Of a stretch of 64,000 nt of DNA, positions 3,476 through 61,561 are shown piece after piece. Where the stretch lies: contig JBAZXV010000002.1 of NCBI GenBank assembly GCA_041659685.1, forward strand, positions 120,195 through 184,194, given 5' to 3'. Made by a program: the position numbers and the translations under genes. The notes under the pieces are model-generated. The model was given only the letters and a program-made list of their open reading frames with translations, was not told the DNA's origin and did no database searches. Source of the DNA: Parcubacteria group bacterium (GTDB lineage: Bacteria > Patescibacteriota > Minisyncoccia > Moranbacterales > UBA11712). How positions within the stretch are numbered: the stretch's first letter is position 1; each line of letters opens with the position of its first letter.

Positions 3476-4015
3476 ATGCTAATCGGAATAAAAGATTTAT
3501 TAAATCTGGTCAAAGAGAAAAAACTCGTGGAAAATCTTTCGGAGCGGGAGCTTAAAAATCCCGAAGGGTCGGGATTTGATCTTCGAATGGGGGAAGTATA
3601 CGAACTTGAAGGGTACGGATATCTTGGCCTTGAGGAAAGGGAAACGCCGAAATCGACCCTGGTCGCTAAATTCGATCCAAAAAAAGTCACTTCCTATATT
3701 TTTGAGCCGGGGAAATATTATCTCATCAAAACAATCGAAACGGTTAATCTTCCCATTGATTTGGCGGGCATTATATTTCCGCGGACAACGCTTTTCCGTT
3801 CGGGTCTCGCGCTTTTCAACGGAATTGTGAATACCGGTTATCAGGGAGAGCTGACTTTCGGTCTTTGCAACCTCGGAAAATCGAATATTAAAGTCGACAT
3901 GGGAGCACGAGTGGTACATATCACCTTTCATGAAGTTTTGGGCGAAGGAAGCCAATATCGCGGTCAATGGCAGGGCGGAAGGGTTACCACTGAAGGAAGG
4001 GAAGTCCAGGTTTAG
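3476..4015 (+). CDS. dCTP deaminase / dUTPase-superfamily protein
   Basis: 179 aa. GSGFDLRMG and the overall beta-rich layout are typical of the dCTP deaminase-dUTPase family. Its position between dCMP deaminase and tmk is consistent with a dUMP/dTMP pathway cluster. Confidence 0.6.
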   Translation: MLIGIKDLLNLVKEKKLVENLSERELKNPEGSGFDLRMGEVYELEGYGYLGLEERETPKSTLVAKFDPKKVTSYIFEPGKYYLIKTIETVNLPIDLAGIIFPRTTLFRSGLALFNGIVNTGYQGELTFGLCNLGKSNIKVDMGARVVHITFHEVLGEGSQYRGQWQGGRVTTEGREVQV

Positions 4016-4088
4016 AAAAAATCAAAGTTCAAAATAAAGGTATCCCGCGAAGCGGGATGGCAATATATTTTTTCATTTTTACACATAA

Positions 4089-4775
4089 ATGAAGAATAAG
4101 AAGAAAGGTTTATTTATTGTTCTTGACGGGACTGACGGGAGCGGAAAGGCGACTCAGACCGAATTATTGGTCCGGAAGCTGAAAAAAAAAGGACACAAGG
4201 TGGAAAAAATTGACTTTCCGCGTTATGGGAAGAAATCAGCCGCTCTTGTGGAGGAATATCTGAACGGAGAATTCGGAACCGCCGAGGAGGTTGGTCCTTA
4301 CCGAGCCTCGATATTTTATGCTTGCGACCGGTATGCCGCCCATTTTCAAATAGAAAAGTGGATTGAAAAAGGAATAACCGTCATTGCTAACCGGTATGTG
4401 ACGGCCAATATGGGCCATCAGGGGGGAAAAATAAAGGAAAAATCGGAACGCAAAAAATATTTTCACTGGCTGTCCGATTTGGAATATAAAATATTTGAAA
4501 TTCCCAGGCCCGATATCAACTTGATACTTCATGTTGAAGCCGGGATTGCCCAAAGGCTGGCGCTTCAAAAAAAGAAGCGCGCATATCTCAAGAAAAAGAA
4601 AGCCGATATTCATGAATTGGACCTCGGGCACCTCAAAAACGCGGAAAAAATATATATCGAAATATCCAAGGTAATTCCGAACATAGAATTAGTCGAGTGC
4701 ATGAAAAATGGAAAGATTATGAAAAGAGAGGAAATAAGCGATTTAGTTTGGACAAAGATTAAGAAATATTTATAA
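4089..4775 (+). CDS. tmk: Thymidylate kinase
   Basis: P-loop LFIVLDGTDGSGKATQ and a typical dTMP kinase layout. Confidence 0.85.
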   Translation: MKNKKKGLFIVLDGTDGSGKATQTELLVRKLKKKGHKVEKIDFPRYGKKSAALVEEYLNGEFGTAEEVGPYRASIFYACDRYAAHFQIEKWIEKGITVIANRYVTANMGHQGGKIKEKSERKKYFHWLSDLEYKIFEIPRPDINLILHVEAGIAQRLALQKKKRAYLKKKKADIHELDLGHLKNAEKIYIEISKVIPNIELVECMKNGKIMKREEISDLVWTKIKKYL

Positions 4776-4811
4776 TAAATGGCTTACTAATGATAAATTT
4801 ATGTGGCGTCA

Positions 4812-4855
4812 TCCTAACATTGAATGTTAGGAGCGCTCAACATTCAATGTTAGGA
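4812..4855 (+). repeat. Two tandem TCCTAA-N9-TTAGGA palindromes abutting the gatB start codon
   Basis: TCCTAACATTGAATGTTAGGA at 4812-4832, then TCAACATTCAATGTTAGGA at 4837-4855. The second copy ends at the A of the gatB ATG. The same stem (TCCTAA/TTAGGA) occurs at uvrB (59519-59541) and in the REPs flanking the RAYT gene (37391-38115). Confidence 0.6.
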
Positions 4856-6297
4856 TGAAATACAAACCGACAATTGGAATGGAGGTTCATGTCGAGCTCA
4901 AGACCGACTCCAAGATGTTCTGCTCATGCAAAAATGAGCTGGGCCTTGATCGGATTCCAAACAAAAATATTTGCCCTGTTTGCACGGGCCAGCCCGGAGC
5001 TTTGCCGGTGGCGAATGAAAAGGCCATTGAGTATGTAATCAGGGCCGGATTGGCGCTTAATTGTGAGATTGCCAGGATTTCCAAGTTTGACCGCAAGAAC
5101 TATTTCTATCCTGACCTTCCGAAAGGATACCAGATTTCCCAATATGATCAGCCGCTTTGCGGAAAGGGATTTTTAGAAATTGGCGGAAAAAAAATCGGGA
5201 TCACAAGGATTCACCTTGAAGAAGACACGGGGAAACTTATTCATCAAAAAGGAACGGATTTCAGCCTTGTCGATTTCAATCGGAGCGGAGTGCCGCTTAT
5301 GGAGCTGGTTACGGAGCCTGAAATTGAATCAGCAGAAGAAGCGAAAAATTTTTGCGAAGAGCTTCAGCTTATTTTGCGATATATGGGAATATCGGACGCG
5401 GATATGGAAAAGGGGCAGATGAGATGCGAAGCGAATATCTCAATCCGAAAAGAGGGCGACAAAAATTTTGGAACAAAAGTGGAAGTGAAAAATTTGAATT
5501 CTTTCAGATCGGTTGAAAAAGCAATCGAATATGAACTCGGGAGGCAGGAAAAAGCGCTGGAAAACGGAGAAAAAATCATTCAGGAAACTCGCGGATGGGA
5601 CGAGGGAAAAATGCAAACTTTTTCCCAAAGAGAGAAAGAGTCGGCGCATGATTATCGGTACTTTCCGGAGCCGGATTTGCCGCCGCTTGAATTCAATGAT
5701 GATTACATCGAAAAAATAAAATGCGAGCTTACGGAATTGCCTGCGCAGAAGATTGAAAGATTCCGGAGGGAATATGAGTTGTCCGAATATGACGCGGAAA
5801 TGCTCGCGCGCGATAAGGATCTGGCGGAATTTTTTGAAAATTCAGTCAGTGAAGCCTGTGAAATTTGCAAGGGCGACGGAAAAATAGCAAAACTTACTGC
5901 CAATTATATAATCTCGGAGCTCAAAAAATATCTGGACGGCCGGAATAAGATTACCGAACTGAAATTAACCCCGGAAAATTTCGGGGAGCTGATGAGTATT
6001 ATTTTTCAAGGAAAGATTAATTCCAGCGCGGCTCAAATCGTTCTTTCTGAAATGGTGAAGACCGGCGCTGATCCGAGTCATGTCATCGCCGAAAAAAATC
6101 TGGGGCAAATCGAAGACGATTCGGAGATAGGAAAAATTATCGAAAAAGTTGTTTCCGAAAACCCTGATCCTGTCGAGGATTACAGAAAAGGAAAGCAGGC
6201 CGCCTTGCAATTTCTTCTGGGGCAGGTTATGAAAGAGAGCAGGGGCAAGGCGGAACCCAAAAAAGCAATGCAGTTAATAAAAGATATTTTACAATAA
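4855..6297 (+). CDS. gatB: Asp/Glu-tRNA(Asn/Gln) amidotransferase subunit B
   Basis: N-terminus MKYKPTIGMEVHVELKTDSKMFCSC and a 480-aa GatB-like layout including a C-terminal YqeY-like domain. Confidence 0.9.
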   Translation: MKYKPTIGMEVHVELKTDSKMFCSCKNELGLDRIPNKNICPVCTGQPGALPVANEKAIEYVIRAGLALNCEIARISKFDRKNYFYPDLPKGYQISQYDQPLCGKGFLEIGGKKIGITRIHLEEDTGKLIHQKGTDFSLVDFNRSGVPLMELVTEPEIESAEEAKNFCEELQLILRYMGISDADMEKGQMRCEANISIRKEGDKNFGTKVEVKNLNSFRSVEKAIEYELGRQEKALENGEKIIQETRGWDEGKMQTFSQREKESAHDYRYFPEPDLPPLEFNDDYIEKIKCELTELPAQKIERFRREYELSEYDAEMLARDKDLAEFFENSVSEACEICKGDGKIAKLTANYIISELKKYLDGRNKITELKLTPENFGELMSIIFQGKINSSAAQIVLSEMVKTGADPSHVIAEKNLGQIEDDSEIGKIIEKVVSENPDPVEDYRKGKQAALQFLLGQVMKESRGKAEPKKAMQLIKDILQ

Positions 6298-9935: not shown

Positions 9936-11462
9936 TTACTGAGCGGGCTCAAGGATTTTCATCGATATTCCTTCCAGTCCGAACGGTTTGGCTTTTTCGA
10001 TTTTAACTTTTTGAAAACTCCCGATGGGGATTTTTTTGTTGGAGGAAAATATAACTTTCTTTTGAGTGCGGGTGTGGCTCGAGTATCTATATAAAATTCG
10101 AGTCGAAATTCTTTTCGTCCAAGGTTCGGCCTTTTTTCCTCCGACGTTACGTCGGAGTTCCTCAAGGTCAAACCTTTTATCAACTAAAACTTCAACGGAT
10201 TTTCTAACATACTTTTTATTGTTCGCAAGAGCTGTTTTTTTCAGAATTTCCGTGAGGACTTTTTCGCGGCGGACTTTTTCTTTTTTTGAAACATTGTCCT
10301 TCATCTTCCAGGCGGCGGTTTCAGGGCGCGGCGAGTATTGGGCGATATAGGCCATATCAAATTTCATGTCGCGGAAAAGCTTGGCGGTATTTTCAAATTG
10401 ATTTTTTGTTTCGCCGGGAAATCCGACAATTATGTCGGTGGAAACAGCGGGCGGCAGTTTGGAGACTAAGTCTCCAATTGGGGACTTAGTCTCCAAGTAG
10501 GCGCGGCGGATTTTTTTGATGAGGCACTTATAGTGTTCGGTTGTGTATTTGCGGTTCATTTTACGAAGGATTGTGTCATCTCCCGATTGGGCGGGCAAGG
10601 AAACATATTCACAAACTTTTTTGCATTTGGAAATTGTTTCTATGAGTTCATCGGACATATCTTTTGGGTGGCTGGTGAGAAACGTCAGCCAGAAGTTTCC
10701 GGGAATGACATCTATTAGTCTTAATAAGTCGGCAAAGCCAATAGCCTGCTTTTTTGAATCATGAATCATGAACCTCGAATTATGGTTTCTCGATTTTTTC
10801 CCTGATTCACAATTCATAATTCCTAATTCATTTTTGTAGCTATTCACATTCTGACCAAGCAAAAAAATTTCTCTGTATCCTTTTTTCACCAGGCTGCGAA
10901 CTTCTTTCAAAATGTTTTCAGCCGGCCTTGAATATTCCCTTCCGCGGGCGTAGGGCACGACGCAGTAGGCACAGAAATTGTTGCAGCCGGTCATGACGGG
11001 AATATAAGCGGTATACTTGTTGGTGTATGTCGGCTCTATTTTTAAGTAATCATTACATGGTTTATTTTTTGAATTATGAATTATGAATTTTGAATCAGGG
11101 TTTTTATTTTTTCTCCATAATTCCTGATTCATAATTCCTGATTCAATTATTTCTTGTGGAAAATATTTAATTTCACAAAATAAATCAACCTTTCCCTTGA
11201 GCCTTCTCCGGACATCTTTTCGATGGGCGAGGCAGCCAGTCAATATTATTTTTTTCTTAGGGTATTTTTTTCGCAGGTTATGAACCAGCCCATAAACCCT
11301 GTCCTCCGGTGTTTGGCGTACGCCGCAGGTGACGAACACGATTAAATCAGCCGCATCAATCGAGGCGGCCGGTTTAAGTTTGTTTTTTTTGAGAATTGTC
11401 GCAATTCTTTCGGCGTCGGAATAATTCATCTGGCAGCCGAATATTTTGAGAAAGTAGGTCAT
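9936..11462 (-). CDS. miaB: Radical SAM methylthiotransferase (MiaB-like) with in-frame insertions
   Basis: N-terminal MTTase domain (IFGCQMNYSD). Radical SAM CxxxCxxC (TGCNNFCAYC). C-terminal TRAM-like region. It is 508 aa versus about 445 typical. Two roughly 27-aa inserts (GIMNQELWRKNKNPDSKFIIHNSKNKP and GIMNCESGKKSRNHNSRFMIHDSKKQA) are encoded by palindromic DNA. It lies adjacent to miaA. Confidence 0.85.
   Translation of the reverse strand: MTYFLKIFGCQMNYSDAERIATILKKNKLKPAASIDAADLIVFVTCGVRQTPEDRVYGLVHNLRKKYPKKKIILTGCLAHRKDVRRRLKGKVDLFCEIKYFPQEIIESGIMNQELWRKNKNPDSKFIIHNSKNKPCNDYLKIEPTYTNKYTAYIPVMTGCNNFCAYCVVPYARGREYSRPAENILKEVRSLVKKGYREIFLLGQNVNSYKNELGIMNCESGKKSRNHNSRFMIHDSKKQAIGFADLLRLIDVIPGNFWLTFLTSHPKDMSDELIETISKCKKVCEYVSLPAQSGDDTILRKMNRKYTTEHYKCLIKKIRRAYLETKSPIGDLVSKLPPAVSTDIIVGFPGETKNQFENTAKLFRDMKFDMAYIAQYSPRPETAAWKMKDNVSKKEKVRREKVLTEILKKTALANNKKYVRKSVEVLVDKRFDLEELRRNVGGKKAEPWTKRISTRILYRYSSHTRTQKKVIFSSNKKIPIGSFQKVKIEKAKPFGLEGISMKILEPAQ
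10462..10495. repeat. Perfect palindrome GGAGACTAAGTCTCC plus a partial second copy, inside the miaB coding sequence
   Basis: ggagactaagtctcc-aattgg-ggacttagtctcc. It encodes LETKSPIGDLVSKL in frame. Confidence 0.6.
10755..10830. repeat. About 76-bp palindromic element (copy 1) inserted in frame in miaB
   Basis: tgaatcatgaatcatgaacctcgaattatgg...ccctgattcacaattcataattcctaattca. It contains an internal inverted repeat and is in reverse orientation relative to copy 2. Confidence 0.6.
11071..11146. repeat. About 76-bp palindromic element (copy 2) inserted in frame in miaB
   Basis: tgaattatgaattatgaattttgaatcaggg...ccataattcctgattcataattcctgattca. The left arm is approximately the reverse complement of the right arm of copy 1. 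Confidence 0.6.
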
Positions 11463-36106: not shown

Positions 36107-37390
36107 ATGCTTGATATTAAATACATCCGGGAAAATAAAGATGCCGTAAAGAAAAATTGCGAGCTTCGCAATATCGCTTGCGATGTGGATAGGATTTTGG
36201 AATTGGATGGAGAAAGAAAAGATCTAATTGAGAAAATTGAAGGATTTAGAAAAGGAAAAAATGAAATAAATGAGCAGATGAAAAATATCGCAAATATCAG
36301 TGCCGAAGAAAAAAAAGAAATCCTGATGAGAGCAAGCGCAATAAAGTTAAACCTTGAACAATTAGAACCGAAATTTGAAGAAATAAATAAGCAATTTCAG
36401 GAGCTTATTTTAGGCATTCCGAATATGACGCATCCCGATTCGCCGATTGGGAAAGACGACGGCGAAAACAAGGAGATTGAAAGATATGGCGAACCGCCGA
36501 AGTTAGATTTTGTGCCAAAGGGGCATGAAGAGCTGATGAACGATTTGGATCTTATTGATTTCGAACGCGGTGCAAAAGTAGCCGGCGCGAAATTTTATTT
36601 TCTCAAAAACGAAGCGGTGCTTTTGGAACAAGCGCTCATCAACTTTGCTTTTCAGAAGCTGATTAAAAAAGGTTTTATTCTGTTTTCTACGCCTGATATA
36701 GCCAAGGATAAGGTGCTTTTTGGCACAGGCTATAATCCCCGCGGTCCGGAACAGCAAATATACTCCATTGAAAATACGGATTTAAGCTTGATAGCCACCT
36801 CCGAAATTCCTATGGGCGGTTATCACATGAATGAAGTTATTGAAGAAAAAGATCTGCCACTGAAATATGCCGCTATTTCCCATTGTTACCGTGTTGAAGC
36901 CGGATCATATGGAAGGCACAGCGCCGGGCTTTATCGGGTGCATCAGTTTACCAAGGTGGAAATGTTTGTCTATGCCGCTCCGGAATTTTCCGAGGCGATA
37001 CATACGGAACTTAAGAATATAGAAGTGGAAATATTCAAAGACCTAGGCGTGCCGTTTCGCGTGGTGGATATATGCACGGGGGATCTTGGCGGCCCGGCAT
37101 GCCGGAAATATGATCTTGAGGCCTGGATGACAAGCCGCAATGATTGGGGAGAAGTGACGTCGACATCTGATACGACCGATTATCAAGCCCGCAGACTTAA
37201 TATTAAAATTAAACGAGAGAACGGAAAAAAGGAATTTTTACACATGCTCAACGGCACAGCAATCGCTATTTCTCGCGCGCTGATTGCCATCATCGAAAAT
37301 GGACAACTTGTCGACGGTTCAGTCATGATTCCGGAAGTTCTCCAGAAATACATGCCAGGCGGACAAAAAGCCATCAAACCCAAAAAATGA
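36107..37390 (+). CDS. serS: Seryl-tRNA synthetase
   Basis: N-terminal coiled-coil arm (MLDIKYIRENKDAVKKN) and class II motifs. 427 aa. Confidence 0.9.
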   Translation: MLDIKYIRENKDAVKKNCELRNIACDVDRILELDGERKDLIEKIEGFRKGKNEINEQMKNIANISAEEKKEILMRASAIKLNLEQLEPKFEEINKQFQELILGIPNMTHPDSPIGKDDGENKEIERYGEPPKLDFVPKGHEELMNDLDLIDFERGAKVAGAKFYFLKNEAVLLEQALINFAFQKLIKKGFILFSTPDIAKDKVLFGTGYNPRGPEQQIYSIENTDLSLIATSEIPMGGYHMNEVIEEKDLPLKYAAISHCYRVEAGSYGRHSAGLYRVHQFTKVEMFVYAAPEFSEAIHTELKNIEVEIFKDLGVPFRVVDICTGDLGGPACRKYDLEAWMTSRNDWGEVTSTSDTTDYQARRLNIKIKRENGKKEFLHMLNGTAIAISRALIAIIENGQLVDGSVMIPEVLQKYMPGGQKAIKPKK

Positions 37391-38115
37391 TTCCTAAAGC
37401 TCGGCTTTAGGAATAAAAAAATGAGGAAAATACAATTTGCCAATGGTGAATATTACCACATCTTTAATAGAGGTGTGGACAAAAGAAAGATATTCTTGGA
37501 AGAAAGGGATTATCAGAGGTTTTTGTTTTCGCTGAATTTACTCAATGACGATGAAGATGGCTTATTGTTGAAATGGCGCGATTACATGAAGTGCAAAGAA
37601 AAATCTTCAAAACCATTCCTAAAGCTCGGCTTTAGGAATAGAAAGTTCCTAGTTGACATTATAGTTTATTGCCTTAATCCGAATCACTATCATTTATTGG
37701 TAAAGCAGAGAATTGAGAAGGGTGTAGAAAGATTTATGCATAAACTTGGGACGAGCTACACAAAATATTTCAATGAAAAATATAAAAGATCGGGAGTTTT
37801 ATTTCAGGGAAAATTCAAAGCGGTTCACATAAAAAATAACGCAAAACTCCTTTATTTATCGGCCTATATTAATCAAAACAGCCAAATCCACGGAATTGCC
37901 AAATCTGATAAATATCCCTGGAGCAGCTACTCGCAATATTCGGCAAATAAAAAATTTTGTTTATGCAGAACGCATGTTATAGTAAGCCAATTCAGAAACG
38001 CGAAGGAGTATAAGGAATTTTGCAAAGAAAATTTGAAAGAAATGATTGAAAGAAAACAGGATGAAAAACTACTCATGGAAGAGTAATTTGCATTCCTAAA
38101 GCCGAGCTTTGGGAA
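37391..38115 (+). mobile_element. IS200/IS605-like Y1 transposase (RAYT) unit flanked by inverted REP-like palindromes
   Basis: REP1 ttcctaaagctcggctttaggaa at 37391-37413. REP3 ttcctaaagccgagctttgggaa at 38093-38115 is the reverse complement of REP1 with one mismatch. An identical REP2 copy lies at 37616-37638 inside the transposase ORF. Confidence 0.7.
37421..38086 (+). CDS. REP-associated tyrosine transposase (IS200-like Y1_Tnp)
   Basis: YHIFNRG N-terminal motif. HUH motif NHYHLLV. A C-terminal SAYINQN region with Tyr. An extended loop between the motifs contains an in-frame REP copy (..KPFLKLGFRNRKF..). Confidence 0.75.
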   Translation: MRKIQFANGEYYHIFNRGVDKRKIFLEERDYQRFLFSLNLLNDDEDGLLLKWRDYMKCKEKSSKPFLKLGFRNRKFLVDIIVYCLNPNHYHLLVKQRIEKGVERFMHKLGTSYTKYFNEKYKRSGVLFQGKFKAVHIKNNAKLLYLSAYINQNSQIHGIAKSDKYPWSSYSQYSANKKFCLCRTHVIVSQFRNAKEYKEFCKENLKEMIERKQDEKLLMEE

Positions 38116-38252
38116 TGATGATTATGAAGGAAAATATTAATTTGTCTCCCATAAAAGAAATGGAACTCCGGACGTCGAGGATTCTTGCTATTCCGGAAGT
38201 GCTTCAGAAATGGATGCCGGGCGGACAGAAAATAGTTAAACCAAAAAAGTAA
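38115..38252 (+). pseudogene. Chimeric gene remnant: aminotransferase 5'-end-like fused to a duplicate of the serS 3' end
   Basis: The 45-aa ORF MIMKENINLSPIKEMELRTSRILAIPEVLQKWMPGGQKIVKPKK has two recognisable parts. Its first part is about 85% identical at nucleotide level to the start of the aminotransferase gene at 40969 (MEDGKINLSPIKEMELRASRI). Its last roughly 65 nt duplicate serS 37327-37390 (IPEVLQKYMPGGQKAIKPKK*). Confidence 0.45.
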
Positions 38253-38341
38253 GTATTTTTTCTGATAACAAAAAGGTCCCAAGGATCAACCCCGGGATTT
38301 TTTTTGGTTGTGCTGTTGGATGTGATTTAAAGTCTTGTCGT

Positions 38342-40968: not shown

Positions 40969-42180
40969 ATGGAAGACGGAAAAATAAATCTATCCCCCAT
41001 AAAGGAAATGGAGCTCCGGGCGTCGAGGATTTCCGGAGTTATTTCGCTGGCTCAAGGCGTGCCGTCTTTTGACACTCCGGAACCGATAAAGAGGGCGGCC
41101 ATCGAAGCTATTGAGAAGGGGAAGGTGGCCAGATATTCTCTCGCTCCCGGGACGCTTGAGTTTCGGGAATCAATTGCCCAGAGCCTGGAACGGGAAAATA
41201 AATATTTCGACTTTGAAGACGAGATTATCGCCACTGCCGGATCAATCGAAGCCATAACGGCGACAATGCTGGCGATCCTCACGCCGGGGGATGAAGTGCT
41301 TATCCCGGATCCGACCTATACGTCATACCAGCCCGCTATAAAAGTGGCGCGCGGGGTTCCTGTTTTCGTTCCGCTCGACGAAAAAAGGCACTGGGCGTTT
41401 GATATTGATAAATTTGAGAAACTTATTACTCCCCGCACAAAAGCCTTTCTTTTTTGCAATCCAAATAATCCGACCGGAACGATATTCAGCCGAAACCAGC
41501 TTCATGCGCTGGCGCAAATCGCCATTAAACACAACATATACATCCTCAGCGACGAAGTGTACAAGGATTTTGTTTTTGACTCGGAAGAGAGGCTTTACTC
41601 GCTTGCGGAGCTTCGCGGCATCCGCGACCGGCTTATCTATATCTTTTCTTTTTCTAAGGCTTATGCCATGACGGGGTGGAGAATCGCATATCTTGCGACT
41701 CATCAGGATCTGGCGAGAAAAATTCTGGCAGTTCATGACGCTCTTGTCACCTGCGCGCCGGTAGTTTCTCAATTTGCCGCCATGGGGGCGCTTGAAATGG
41801 CCAGAGAAGATGTTTCTTATTTTAAGGAATATTTTAAAAAAAGGAGGGATTTAACGTGCAAAAGGCTTGATAAATTGAGTCATGTTTTCGAATATCAAAA
41901 ACCAGACAGCGCCTATTTCGTTTTTCCGAAAATAAAGGATGATTTTCTTAAAAAATTTGCATCCGGCATGCCTGTGGCGAATCGCAAAGAAACCAGGGAA
42001 AGCGGCGGCTCGTGGCAGCTTGCCATAGAATTGCTGGAAAAGGCCAAGGTTGCCGTCGTTCCGGGGGCGGCATTCGGTCCAAGCGGAGAAAATCACATTC
42101 GAATGTGCTTTGGGAGATCGGAAGAAGACATAAATTTGGCCTTTGACAGGATGGAAAATTTTTTCGACAGTCCGGCCTAA
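40969..42180 (+). CDS. Class I/II PLP-dependent aminotransferase (aspartate aminotransferase-like)
   Basis: PLP-lysine motif SFSKAYAMTGWRIAY and an N-terminal GVISLAQGVPSFDTP segment. 403 aa. Confidence 0.85.
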   Translation: MEDGKINLSPIKEMELRASRISGVISLAQGVPSFDTPEPIKRAAIEAIEKGKVARYSLAPGTLEFRESIAQSLERENKYFDFEDEIIATAGSIEAITATMLAILTPGDEVLIPDPTYTSYQPAIKVARGVPVFVPLDEKRHWAFDIDKFEKLITPRTKAFLFCNPNNPTGTIFSRNQLHALAQIAIKHNIYILSDEVYKDFVFDSEERLYSLAELRGIRDRLIYIFSFSKAYAMTGWRIAYLATHQDLARKILAVHDALVTCAPVVSQFAAMGALEMAREDVSYFKEYFKKRRDLTCKRLDKLSHVFEYQKPDSAYFVFPKIKDDFLKKFASGMPVANRKETRESGGSWQLAIELLEKAKVAVVPGAAFGPSGENHIRMCFGRSEEDINLAFDRMENFFDSPA

Positions 42181-56615: not shown

Positions 56616-56697
56616 AAAATACCTTTTAGTAACGTTTCGTGTTGTGGGTTATGTGCCTCGAGAGCACACTATCACTATATCACCAATATCAGCTCCA

Positions 56698-59473: not shown

Positions 59474-59545
59474 TGGACTTTTATTTTTTTAGTGTATATA
59501 ATTTATGAACGATGCGTTTTCCTAACATTTAATGTTAGGAAATGA
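59474..59545 (+). promoter_or_regulatory. uvrB promoter (TGGACT-17-TATAAT) plus downstream TTCCTAACATTTAATGTTAGGAA palindrome (candidate LexA operator or 5'UTR hairpin)
   Basis: -35 at 59474-59479 and -10 at 59497-59502. A perfect 9+9 palindrome with a 1-nt centre lies at 59519-59541, 20 nt before the uvrB ATG. A rho-independent-like hairpin (GAGGCG...CGCCTC TTTT) lies upstream at about 59437-59470. Confidence 0.45.
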
Positions 59546-59560
59546 AAACAATGCTAGGAA

Positions 59561-61561
59561 ATGAAATTCAAAATTAACTCCAAATTCAAGCCCGATGGGG
59601 ATCAGCCCAAGGCGATCAAGGATTTGACCGCCGGGCTTCGCAGTGGCGCGAAATTCCAAACACTTCTTGGAGTGACTGGGTCGGGCAAGACTTTCACGAT
59701 GGCGAATGTGATTGAGAATGTCCAGAAACCGACACTAGTCATTGCGCCGAACAAAACGCTCGCTGCCCAGCTCGCGCAGGAATTTCGCACATTTTTTCCG
59801 AAAAACGCGGTCGAATATTTTGTCTCCTACTATGATTATTACCAGCCGGAAGCATATATCGCTTCGTCCGACACATATATCGAAAAAGAAGCGGAGATAA
59901 ACGATGAAATTGACCGGCTCCGTCATGCGGCGACGGTGGCGGTTATGTCGCGAAAGGACTCGATTGTGGTGGCGTCGGTTTCCTGCATCTATGGCTTGGG
60001 ATCGCCGGAATTTTATGAGGACATTTCTCTCAGTCTCAAGATCGGAGAAGCGGCAGACAGAGATAAGTTAATCAAAGATCTGACGGACATGCATTTTTTT
60101 CGGTCGGAATATCTGTCTCGCGGGAAGTTTCGCGCGCATGGAGATACGATCGAAGTCATGTCGCCGTCACGGGAAATAATAACGAGAATTGAGATAGGAG
60201 ATGGGAGAGTGGGGAAAATATCGGAGTATGATTTTCTGACCGGTGAGGCTCTTGGAATTCTCGATAAAGTTTTGATATACCCGGCAAAGCATTTTGTCGT
60301 TCCCGAACCGCTAATGGAGGAAGCGCTTGGAAAGATAGAGACAGAGATGAGAGACAGAGTGGATTATTTTAAGAAACATAATAAACTGCTTGAAGCCGAG
60401 AGGATATACCGCCGGACAAAACAAGATCTTGAGATGATGCGGGAAATCGGGTATTGCAACGGGATTGAAAATTATTCCCGCTATTTGACCGGCCGCGTCC
60501 CGGGGGAAGCTCCTTATACTCTTGTAGACTATTTCAGCAAAGATTTTTTGATTATAATCGACGAATCTCACGTAACCGTTCCTCAGCTCAACGCGATGTA
60601 TAACGGCGACCATGCCCGCAAAAAAGCGCTTATCGATAACGGTTTTCGGCTTCCGAGCGCTTTCGACAATCGGCCGCTGAAATTCAGTGAATTTGAAAAG
60701 AAAATCAATCAAGTAATTTTCACTTCAGCGACTCCGGCTGAGTACGAAAAGCGTAACTCGAAACGCGTAACGCATAACGCGACAGGAATCGTTGAACAGA
60801 TTATCAGGCCTACTGGCTTAATAGATCCTGAGCTGGTTATTAAACCCGCGAAGGGGCAGGTGAAGGACGTGATTGAGGAGATAAAGGAAGAGATTAAAGA
60901 TAAAGATAGAGATAGAGAAATGAGAGGGAGAGTGCTGGTGACGACGCTGACCAAAAAAATGGCCGAAGATCTTGCCGAATTTTTGAAAGAAAATGAGATA
61001 AAATCGGAATATCTGCATTCCGGAGTGGACACCATGGACCGGGTGCGGATTCTCGAAAATTTACGCCGGGGAAAATTTGATGTTTTGGTGGGCGTGAATC
61101 TTCTGCGGGAAGGCCTTGATTTGCCGGAAGTGTCGCTGGTGACCATTCTTGATGCGGACAAAGAAGGTTTTTTGCGATCCGAAACATCGCTCGTTCAAAC
61201 GATCGGCCGCGCGGCGCGGAATATTTCCGGACGGGTGATTCTCTACGCTGACAAAATCACGGGCTCGATGAAACGGGCGATTGATGAAACCAACCGCCGG
61301 CGAGAAACGCAAACAGCTTACAACAAAAAGCATCATATCACGCCGAAAACAATCAAAAAGAAGATTGAATCGATTGTCGATCACGAACTCAAACCCGAAA
61401 TTCCGCGGGAATTTGTGAAACTCGAATCTCTTGAGGATATTGCGGGATATCTGAAAATCAAGGAACGCGAAATGAAAGAAGCGGCGCGGAATATGGAATT
61501 TGAAAAAGCGGCGGTGATCCGGGATGAAATCATACAACTGAGGAAGTTGCAGATGGGATAG
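59561..61561 (+). CDS. uvrB: Excinuclease ABC subunit B
   Basis: MKFKINSKFKPDGDQPKAIKDL N-terminus. Walker A GVTGSGKT. Helicase motifs. C-terminal UVR domain (EFEKAAVIRDEIIQLRK). Confidence 0.9.
   Translation: MKFKINSKFKPDGDQPKAIKDLTAGLRSGAKFQTLLGVTGSGKTFTMANVIENVQKPTLVIAPNKTLAAQLAQEFRTFFPKNAVEYFVSYYDYYQPEAYIASSDTYIEKEAEINDEIDRLRHAATVAVMSRKDSIVVASVSCIYGLGSPEFYEDISLSLKIGEAADRDKLIKDLTDMHFFRSEYLSRGKFRAHGDTIEVMSPSREIITRIEIGDGRVGKISEYDFLTGEALGILDKVLIYPAKHFVVPEPLMEEALGKIETEMRDRVDYFKKHNKLLEAERIYRRTKQDLEMMREIGYCNGIENYSRYLTGRVPGEAPYTLVDYFSKDFLIIIDESHVTVPQLNAMYNGDHARKKALIDNGFRLPSAFDNRPLKFSEFEKKINQVIFTSATPAEYEKRNSKRVTHNATGIVEQIIRPTGLIDPELVIKPAKGQVKDVIEEIKEEIKDKDRDREMRGRVLVTTLTKKMAEDLAEFLKENEIKSEYLHSGVDTMDRVRILENLRRGKFDVLVGVNLLREGLDLPEVSLVTILDADKEGFLRSETSLVQTIGRAARNISGRVILYADKITGSMKRAIDETNRRRETQTAYNKKHHITPKTIKKKIESIVDHELKPEIPREFVKLESLEDIAGYLKIKEREMKEAARNMEFEKAAVIRDEIIQLRKLQMG

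Follow-up and report, generated by a model that had tools for sequence, protein, structure and literature searches.

REP-type palindromes linked to RAYT transposases very probably occupy the gatB and uvrB start regions of a Candidatus Moranbacteria genome

Two short palindromes directly upstream of gatB and a third in the leader of uvrB occur in a 64,000-nucleotide stretch of a Parcubacteria group bacterium (order Moranbacterales; GenBank assembly GCA_041659685.1, contig JBAZXV010000002.1, positions 120,195 to 184,194). They are very probably not operators, but copies of a mobile hairpin of the repetitive extragenic palindromic (REP) type of Candidatus Moranbacteria, a lineage of the Candidate Phyla Radiation (CPR/Patescibacteria). 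This hairpin is linked to a family of REP-associated tyrosine transposases (RAYTs). The full stretch is referred to as the window, and coordinates without a locus name are positions within it; L-numbers denote loci of other genomes or metagenome stretches, and P-numbers denote homologous proteins. The original prediction, made from the window alone, had described three palindromes with a common TCCTAA/TTAGGA stem, and these are present at the positions given to within 1-2 bases. It had also placed the uvrB copy between the -10 element and the start codon of that gene. This is correct, as the promoter-like site ends at 59502 and UvrB starts at 59561. Three readings had been offered, namely a novel LexA operator, a second subfamily of the REPs that flank a RAYT gene of the window, and an RNA hairpin that occludes a start codon. 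The second of these was strengthened, as the same palindrome flanks RAYT genes in sibling genomes. The observations that carry this reading are the family membership of the palindromes, their association with RAYT genes in siblings, their presence or absence at orthologous sites, the heterogeneity of their contexts and the fold of the RAYT.

The palindromes of the window

The window contains two REP types with three copies each (Table 1). Both have a 7-nt foot, TTCCTAA/TTAGGAA, in common and are told apart by the top of the stem. In the AACATT type, which is found at gatB and uvrB, the foot (T)TCCTAA/TTAGGA(A) carries the top CATT-N-AATG. In the sister type, found around and inside the RAYT gene, the same foot carries AGC-NNN-GCT, and the palindrome of the window RAYT reads TCCTAAAGCTCGGCTTTAGGA. 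No match to the AACATT palindrome arose in 100 dinucleotide-preserving shuffles of the window, and the generic pattern TCCTAA-N(3-25)-TTAGGA gave four matches where 0.07 were expected. The second gatB copy has a degenerate 5′ foot, which holds all three of its mismatches to TCCTAACATTGAATGTTAGGA. GatB starts at 4855, and its N-terminus, MKYKPTIGMEVHVEL, is kept across dozens of homologs.

Table 1. Palindromic repeats and associated features of the window.
Feature	Position	Strand	Sequence and remarks
Promoter-like site at the end of tmk	4749-4776	+	TGGACA-16-TATAAT; consensus match only
REPIN-like inverted doublet of two REPs	4809-4858		tmk-gatB junction; arms TCATCCTAACATTGAATGTT / AACATTCAATGTTAGGATGA, 10-nt centre AGGAGCGCTC
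REP copy 1, AACATT type	4812-4832		TCCTAACATTGAATGTTAGGA, centre G
REP copy 2, AACATT type	4835-4855		GCTCAACATTCAATGTTAGGA, centre C; last base is the A of the gatB ATG
5′ flanking REP of RAYT, sister type	37391-37413		TTCCTAAAGCTCGGCTTTAGGAA; directly after the serS stop codon
RAYT-like HUH/Y1 transposase gene, 221 aa	37421-38086	+	Pfam Y1_Tnp 37.7 bits (cut-off 23); HUH motif NHYH at residues 88-91
REP inside the RAYT open reading frame	37616-37638 (core 37617-37637)	+	encodes FLKLGFRN, residues 66-73
3′ flanking REP of RAYT	38093-38115		inverted orientation; one G-T mismatch, TTCCTAAAGCCGAGCTTTGGGAA
Promoter-like site of uvrB	59474-59502	+	TGGACT-17-TATAAT; -10 kept in orthologs
REP singlet, AACATT type	59518-59542		TTTCCTAACATTTAATGTTAGGAAA, centre T; between uvrB -10 and ATG; core TCCTAACATTTAATGTTAGGA at 59520-59540
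Partial repeat of REP 3′ arm and start region	59550-59567	+	AATGCTAGGAAATGAAAT against AATGTTAGGAAATGAAAA at 59531-59548, 16/18 positions; holds the real uvrB ATG

The RAYT gene and its flanking repeats

The product of the single RAYT-like gene of the window contains H89, H91 and Y149, which are invariant in RAYT alignments. In the AlphaFold model of this protein (pLDDT 86.8), the HUH motif and the catalytic tyrosine lie within a predicted Y1 fold. The best fold match of the model is 4ER8_A, the E. coli RAYT in complex with a REP hairpin (E 9.4e-8, TM 0.69). The next matches in Foldseek are the IS608 and ISDra2 TnpA structures 2VJV, 2XM3 and 2A6M, with E-values of about 1e-4. Sequence searches against PDB chains, using the single RAYT sequence and an 18-sequence profile, returned only noise, so that the link to 4ER8 emerged through fold comparison alone. 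Homologs of the protein carry the name RayT at JGI. Judged by its sequence, the window RAYT belongs to a divergent branch of RAYTs.

The sister-type REP flanks the window RAYT and ten others. It has 144 sites in 110 metagenome stretches, of which only 26 lie in stretches with a RAYT. For the AACATT type, homologs of the window RAYT (48-54% identity) were found by tblastn in eight CPR loci that contain the palindrome. In five of these sibling loci (L019, L024, L033, L052 and L059), copies of the AACATT palindrome are found immediately ahead of the RAYT start, inside the open reading frame (ORF) and immediately behind the stop codon, and in L046 the palindrome flanks the RAYT. The repeat seen at gatB and uvrB is in this way a flanking repeat of RAYT genes in sibling genomes. 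More than one RAYT may be present, with a tandem pair in L054 and two copies in the single genome JASEHL01 (L046 and L179) that have different REP types.

Some further features were noted around RAYT loci. Immediately after the 3′ REP of the window RAYT, at 38125-38253, there is a chimera-like ORF of 42 codons. Over its first half it is similar to the N-terminus of the aminotransferase at 40969 (INLSPIKEMELR.SRI), and the final 20 residues are a duplicate of the serS C-terminus (IPEVLQKWMPGGQKIVKPKK, compared with 37330-37390). This arrangement suggests an old rearrangement or a target duplication at RAYT insertion. The RAYT of L129 is likewise located 3′ of serS. The contigs that encode the RAYT homologs P0241-P0360 are mostly 1-5 kb in length, suggesting that assemblies break at RAYT/REP loci through repeats or strain variation.

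A REP copy inside the RAYT coding sequence

The RAYT ORF of the window contains a third sister-type REP, which the original prediction had overlooked. All 22 RAYT genes that were read have a 23-nt stretch of constant length at the same codons, which are those of residues 66-73 of the window RAYT. This stretch lies within three mismatches of a flanking REP of its own locus in 20 of the 22 genes. The median difference between the internal copy and its own flanks is one mismatch, compared with seven for the flanks of other loci. Besides the window, internal copies are found in L019, L024, L033, L052, L059, L092, L095, L103, L104, L117, L120, L129, L145, L179, L180, L182 and L183, where the codons follow the pattern F-L-x-x-x-x-R-K/N. 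At least six palindrome types are represented: AACATT-N-AATGTT, AAGC-NNN-GCTT with several loop variants, AAGGGAACCTT, ATCTCCGAGAT, AAGGCTAAGCCTT and TTTTTAAGGYTWARCCTTAAAAA, the last with another foot.

The internal copies also show that pairing is maintained while the sequence changes. In an ungapped alignment, 97.3% of cells are paired, and five of the ten pairs have changes on both sides (30 cells), that is, compensatory changes. Covariation as strong as that observed arose in none of 500 shuffles, and the signal is lost when the partner columns are slid. Among 120 homologs, the same segment has complementary residue pairs at the protein level (K..F, T..V, I..I and R..L). In a test of prediction, four homologs were chosen by their peptide alone (FLISEIRK, FLRLNLKK, FLKGTFRN and FLKVPFRK), and the flanks held the predicted palindromes in all four.

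In the AlphaFold model, the internal segment is a low-confidence surface loop between a helix at residues 48-61 and a strand at 78-85, just before the HUH strand. In L046 and L054b, the internal palindrome has decayed with no change in length. The segment is therefore regarded as a part of the protein and not as a recent insertion. Independent insertion of the internal palindrome at a hot spot was considered and rejected, since segment length does not vary among the 22 RAYTs, the two decayed ones included.

No description of a RAYT-internal REP copy was found in the portion of the RAYT/REPIN literature that was covered. It is an evenly balanced question whether the Moranbacteria RAYT gene constitutes a three-hairpin unit, with an embedded REP that is kept palindromic by compensatory changes and concordant with its flanks over at least six types, as REP-RAYT biology undescribed for proteobacterial systems. 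If it does, one option would be that the RAYT gene carries its own substrate, which could serve self-limitation, autoregulation at the level of DNA or mRNA, or cassette swapping of hairpin tops between TTCCTAA feet. A second option would be that the RAYT coding sequence gave rise to the repeats and continually serves as a template for them. Such a unit would join REPs that supply stops, bury starts and insert in frame in essential genes of CPR genomes of about 1 Mb. The embedded and co-varying REP provides a testable handle on how RAYTs recognise, copy and co-evolve with REPs.

Distribution and contexts of the AACATT palindrome

An exact scan for CCTAACATTNAATGTTAGG, with 18 specified bases, was carried out on one genome per species for 185,579 bacterial and archaeal species. 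It returned 61 loci, of which about 51 are from metagenome-assembled genomes (MAGs) of Candidatus Moranbacteria/Moraniibacteriota or of unclassified Parcubacteria/Patescibacteria, belonging to many species. These CPR loci contain 71 exact sites, with 3-10 exact copies per assembly (10 each in JAZDKQ01 and JASEHL01, 7 in JAUXSN01). Ten non-CPR loci were left out: seven of Psychrobacter and single matches labelled Trueperaceae, Oscillospiraceae and Bathyarchaeia. The Psychrobacter matches are one orthologous terminator-like hairpin with other flanks (GCCTAAC...GTTAGGC and a T-run). Viral contigs gave one match.

About 15 of the sites are doublets with copies 23-27 nt apart, and 11 of these have complementary centre bases and are inverted, so that one long hairpin could form, as at 4809-4858 of the window. 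Several doublets in sibling genomes use the AGCG(C/T) spacer of the window. This anatomy corresponds to the REPIN, the doublet element defined for Pseudomonas (PMC3116915, PMC3337134). An inverted doublet of another TCCTAA-like type (CCTAAGACTAAGTCTTAGG / CCTAAAACTTAGTCTTAGG) is located at 4511-4553 of L064, between radical-SAM and methyltransferase genes.

The copies lie between co-directional, divergent and convergent genes, the last in L025, L040, L057 and L060. At 13 sites, RAYT genes included, the adjacent gene ends on the TAA of the foot TCCTAA as its stop codon (L006, L009, L019, L020, L022, L025, L029, L034, L035, L037, L042, L049 and L052). At several others, the REP end GGAT forms a start codon with a following G, as in the window gatB, L030 and L042. 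The REP of L048 is in frame within uvrA (minus strand, about 1152-1170); it encodes NLTLNVRR, and this UvrA is nine residues longer than that of the window. Sibling genes whose starts lie no more than about 30 nt from a copy encode an aminoacyl-tRNA synthetase, the ATP synthase gamma subunit, GatA, a GT4 glycosyltransferase, LigA, an ECF-type sigma factor, peptidyl-tRNA hydrolase (Pth), a DHFR-like protein and DUF5680, with no function common to all.

These contexts also bear on the proposal that the palindrome is the operator of another dimeric transcription factor, whose small regulon, kept across Moranbacteria, would comprise about 5-10 promoters in each genome. The low copy number (3-10 per genome), the perfect dyad symmetry, the tandem sites about 24 bp apart, the many copies 0-30 nt from a start codon and the retention of some positions between species would all suit such a regulator. 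It is nevertheless very unlikely. The neighbouring genes share no function, copies are found where two genes converge as well as in frame within uvrA and RAYT ORFs, and orthologous sites are empty in close relatives. The family also divides into six or more sequence types with a separate RAYT paralog for each, which fits pairs of transposase and substrate and not one regulator.

Several points weigh against assigning the palindromes to a REP-RAYT system. The repeat is dispersed and short as in a REP family, yet its 3-10 exact copies per assembly are far fewer than those of classical REP families. Classical REP superfamilies are marked by a conserved GTAG or CGTC tetranucleotide at one end (PMC3733652). 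This tag is absent from the ends of the present repeats, which read (T)TCCTAA/TTAGGA(A) with the variants ATCC and ACCC. Some positions are kept across species (for example, L030/L031/L051 and L006/L037/L049), which fits old REP insertions and functional sites alike. The window RAYT scores 27.6 bits with the NCBIfam RAYT equivalog NF047646, below its cut-off of 80, and no RAYT carrying the AACATT type is found within the 64-kb window.

The gatB junction

Taken together, the two gatB copies are an inverted repeat with perfectly matched 20-nt arms (4809-4828 and 4839-4858), a feature also missed in the original prediction. The arms include TCAT/ATGA, and the gatB ATG (4855-4857) therefore falls in the 3′ arm. 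In L062-L065, whose GatB proteins are 79-82% identical to that of the window, tmk and gatB overlap through ATGA with no spacer and no repeat. The junction of the window has about 80 more bases, 50 of which are the doublet. With the insertion, an ancestral translational coupling of tmk and gatB has been broken. The promoter-like site at the end of tmk would place the REPIN in the 5′ leader of gatB. A sigma-70 promoter within the doublet, read by eye as TTGAAT-17-TTCAAT-6-ATG, was rejected; its -10 lacks the A at position 2, and the promoter scan gave no match.

If the region is transcribed, the doublet is predicted to fold with -33.6 kcal/mol (z -6.2) and the AUG paired. The part of the original prediction that concerned occlusion of the start codon thus stands as a predicted physical consequence at gatB, while the evidence does not suggest it as the reason for the presence of the sequence. 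In its full form, this reading holds that the palindromes are cis-acting RNA hairpins (translation attenuators, mRNA stabilisers or terminators) that were selected for their effect on gatB and uvrB, with their repeat nature being secondary. Promoter-like sites would place both elements in 5′ leaders, and E. coli REPs are reported to act on mRNA decay and termination. The reading is unlikely all the same. The hairpins are absent from orthologs, in which tmk and gatB are normally coupled translationally through ATGA. The fold predicted at uvrB is weak (-14.5 kcal/mol, z -2.4) and does not sequester the AUG, and no T-run or terminator-like site was found after the gatB doublet or the uvrB singlet. 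The same sequence also occurs in every kind of context, and the burial of the start codon of an essential gene resembles a tolerated cost more than a design.

The uvrB leader

In L066 and L067 (UvrB 87-89% identical), the uvrB leader has no insert and reads TATATAAT, followed by 8 nt and the ATG. The window leader is longer by about 52 bases; these comprise the REP and a partial repeat that covers its 3′ arm and the start region. This partial repeat looks like an insertion scar or a duplication. Both the tmk-gatB junction and the uvrB leader are occupied in the window and empty in the relatives named (L062-L065 for the former, L066 and L067 for the latter), which is evidence of insertion and speaks against conserved sites. 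In L068 (UvrB 85% identical), the uvrB leader has no TCCTAA palindrome; another palindrome, CCCCGTCAAATT...AATTTGACGGGG, is inserted at the 5′ end of uvrB (4001-4130), and the gene start is duplicated. The homologs P0121 and P0160 have N-terminal extensions, which suggest similar palindromic insertions at the uvrB 5′ end. It seems, on comparison of these sequences, that the 5′ end of uvrB is a recurrent landing site for palindromic elements in Moranbacteria.

Partial repeats of the 3′ arm, between one and three in number, trail many REPs of both types (for example, ...GTTAGGAAAATGTTAGGAAAAATGTTAGGAAAA). They are seen at 59531-59567 of the window, in L004, L024, L045, L059 and L061, and in L071, L072, L076, L080, L083 and L091. 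They may be the footprint of repeated insertion and excision, or of slippage.

The length of UvrB varies from 652 to 709 residues among close relatives (P0121-P0240), through short in-frame inserts at three hot spots. The inserts of some homologs resemble translated palindromes, such as EPKAPIGALGS. In the window, the inserts KRVTHNATG and DKDRDREMRG (60761-60790 and 60899-60930) consist of non-palindromic DNA, and palindrome insertion is no more than a possible origin of the 14 extra residues of this UvrB. L026 is a 1606-nt contig binned as Pseudomonadales, in which a pair of AACATT REPs and a TTCCTAAAGTCGAACTTTAGGAA palindrome precede only the last 77 codons of uvrB (78% identical). This contig is probably mis-binned CPR DNA, and its uvrB piece is either a fragment or another duplication of a 3′ end.

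The LexA question

The remaining proposal is that the palindromes bind the LexA of the window and place uvrB and gatB under the control of the DNA-damage (SOS) response. The lexA gene noted in the original prediction does exist, as a LexA-like Peptidase_S24 protein is encoded at 1098-1814. Moreover, uvrB is a classical SOS gene whose palindrome lies between its -10 and ATG, the palindrome includes AACAT/ATGTT, and sibling genomes have two copies upstream of ligA and one inside uvrA. Against this, no palindrome is found upstream of lexA (near 1098), even with three mismatches allowed, and gatB and uvrB orthologs with 79-89% identical proteins are without it. In L016, the palindrome lies downstream of a lexA homolog. 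The neighbours are for the most part housekeeping genes with no role in repair, and copies are also seen at convergent gene ends, in ORFs, and around and inside RAYT genes. For the palindrome, neither an autoregulatory site at lexA, nor conservation at orthologous SOS genes (uvrB in L066-L068, lexA in L064), nor a coherent set of repair genes was found.

The Cheo box of Gram-positive bacteria is CGAAC-N4-GTTCG. The palindrome, for which a likeness to Cheo-type half-sites with altered spacing had been claimed, contains AAC...GTT, but its half-site spacing is wrong, with TAAC-N7-GTTA differing from GAAC-N4-GTTC. The original prediction had named scattered, non-promoter positions as an observation that would speak against LexA, and such positions were seen in the genome scan, both at convergent intergenic sites and inside ORFs. 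The proposal of a novel LexA operator is consequently abandoned; with no motif at the promoter of lexA itself or at gatB and uvrB of close relatives, and with heterogeneous contexts in siblings, it is extremely improbable.

The lexA promoter, TTGACT-17-TATAGT, bears a different sequence, the 15-mer AGTGATATAGTGATA, which overlaps it over the -10 (1049-1063, + strand). With at most one mismatch, this 15-mer is also located upstream of the DUF763/HHH gene of the window (56670-56684, - strand), of the lexA ortholog in L064 (5262) and of the DUF763 orthologs in L066 (3937), L067 (3374) and L068 (3856). The motif, in the form AGTGATATAGTGATA(GT), is further found at position 2514 of L008. It behaves like a real lexA operator because its position is kept at orthologous promoters, whereas that of the TCCTAA palindrome is not. 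AGTGATATAGTGATA is thus the better candidate for a LexA box of this lineage. The REP reading predicts that LexA binds AGTGATATAGTGATAGT and does not bind TCCTAACATTNAATGTTAGGA.

Proposed mechanism and implications

By analogy with IS200/IS605 TnpA and E. coli TnpA-REP (structures 2VJV and 4ER8), the RAYT, as an HUH/Y1 single-strand DNA transposase, would recognise the folded hairpin on single-stranded DNA. It would cut beside the hairpin stem and then copy or re-insert the hairpin. In compact genomes, the surviving copies would be those in the few bases between genes, or in frame in tolerant protein loops. Copies that survive in short intergenic gaps would often abut or supply stop codons, through the TAA of TCCTAA, and start regions. 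At gatB, a doublet would have inserted into the ancestral ATGA overlap of the tmk stop and the gatB start. At uvrB, the ancestral start codon would have been located 8 nt downstream of the -10, and a singlet would have inserted between the two. A RAYT is presumed to have moved these REPs; the attribution of the AACATT type to one RAYT of the source genome, and any effect on the expression of gatB or uvrB, would be equally presumptive. Exaptation of the REPs for the expression of these two genes is a minor possibility.

REP/REPIN-RAYT systems have so far been described mainly in Proteobacteria, and the present repeats indicate that they exist in the Candidate Phyla Radiation. A tempting novel LexA box of the CPR is removed as a lead, and AGTGATATAGTGATA is offered in its place. 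The presence of repeats on start and stop codons and in the reading frames of essential genes (gatB, uvrB and uvrA) bears on the tolerance of selfish DNA, on gene calling and on the assembly of CPR MAGs.

The window contains one more set of possible in-frame repeats. The MiaB-like radical-SAM ORF at 9936-11462 (- strand) encodes 508 residues, compared with 446-457 in orthologs (L062-L064), and includes inverted repeats at 10459-10496, 10768-10831 and 11067-11145. Its extra segments (for example, ...DSKFIIHNSKN... and ...NHNSRFMIHDSKK...) coincide with inverted and direct repeats and may be another class of in-frame repeat insertions. The core of the L064 doublet described above, GACTAAGTC, is similar to the palindrome at 10459-10496.

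Comparison with known systems

LexA operators are similar to the present repeats in having a palindromic dyad between the -10 and the start of uvrB, with AAC...GTT inside. They are distinguished from them by half-site spacing, by a site at the lexA promoter, by conservation at orthologous SOS promoters and by the non-promoter contexts seen here.

Rickettsia palindromic elements (RPEs) are about 100-150 bp in length and are found in frame in essential genes of a reduced genome, with no known dedicated transposase. The in-frame addition of a short peptide is common to both, as seen here in the uvrA of L048 and possibly in the variable inserts of UvrB and MiaB. The Moranbacteria elements differ in being 21-27 nt in length, or about 50 nt as doublets, and in being tied to RAYT genes.

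The IS200/IS605 elements (IS608 and ISDra2), with a TnpA and subterminal left-end and right-end (LE/RE) hairpins, have in common with the present system the Y1 HUH fold, hairpins that flank the transposase gene and a presumed single-stranded DNA chemistry. In contrast, the hairpins described here are also dispersed alone, without the gene, and therefore do not represent the termini of a multi-copy insertion sequence. One and the same palindrome forms the left and the right hairpin, and a third hairpin is located inside the ORF.

The gammaproteobacterial REP/REPIN-RAYT systems (E. coli TnpA-REP/YafM with REP/BIME repeats, and the Pseudomonas REPINs) share further features with the Moranbacteria repeats. 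Both have short palindromes (21-27 nt here) that are dispersed mostly intergenically, inverted doublets that form a long hairpin, and a flanking HUH/Y1 RAYT gene, with 4ER8 as the best fold match in the present case. They also share several RAYT paralogs, each with its own REP type and with two possible per genome, and insertion sites that partly persist across related species. The Moranbacteria REPs differ in that a shared TTCCTAA/TTAGGAA foot takes the place of the 5′ GTAG/CGTC tag, and in that there are about 3-10 exact copies per assembly, compared with tens to hundreds. They are perfect palindromes without a bulge, and copies are located on stop and start codons and sometimes in frame within ORFs. 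The Moranbacteria RAYT itself scores below the NCBIfam equivalog cut-off, belongs to a CPR host, and has an ORF that holds its own REP.

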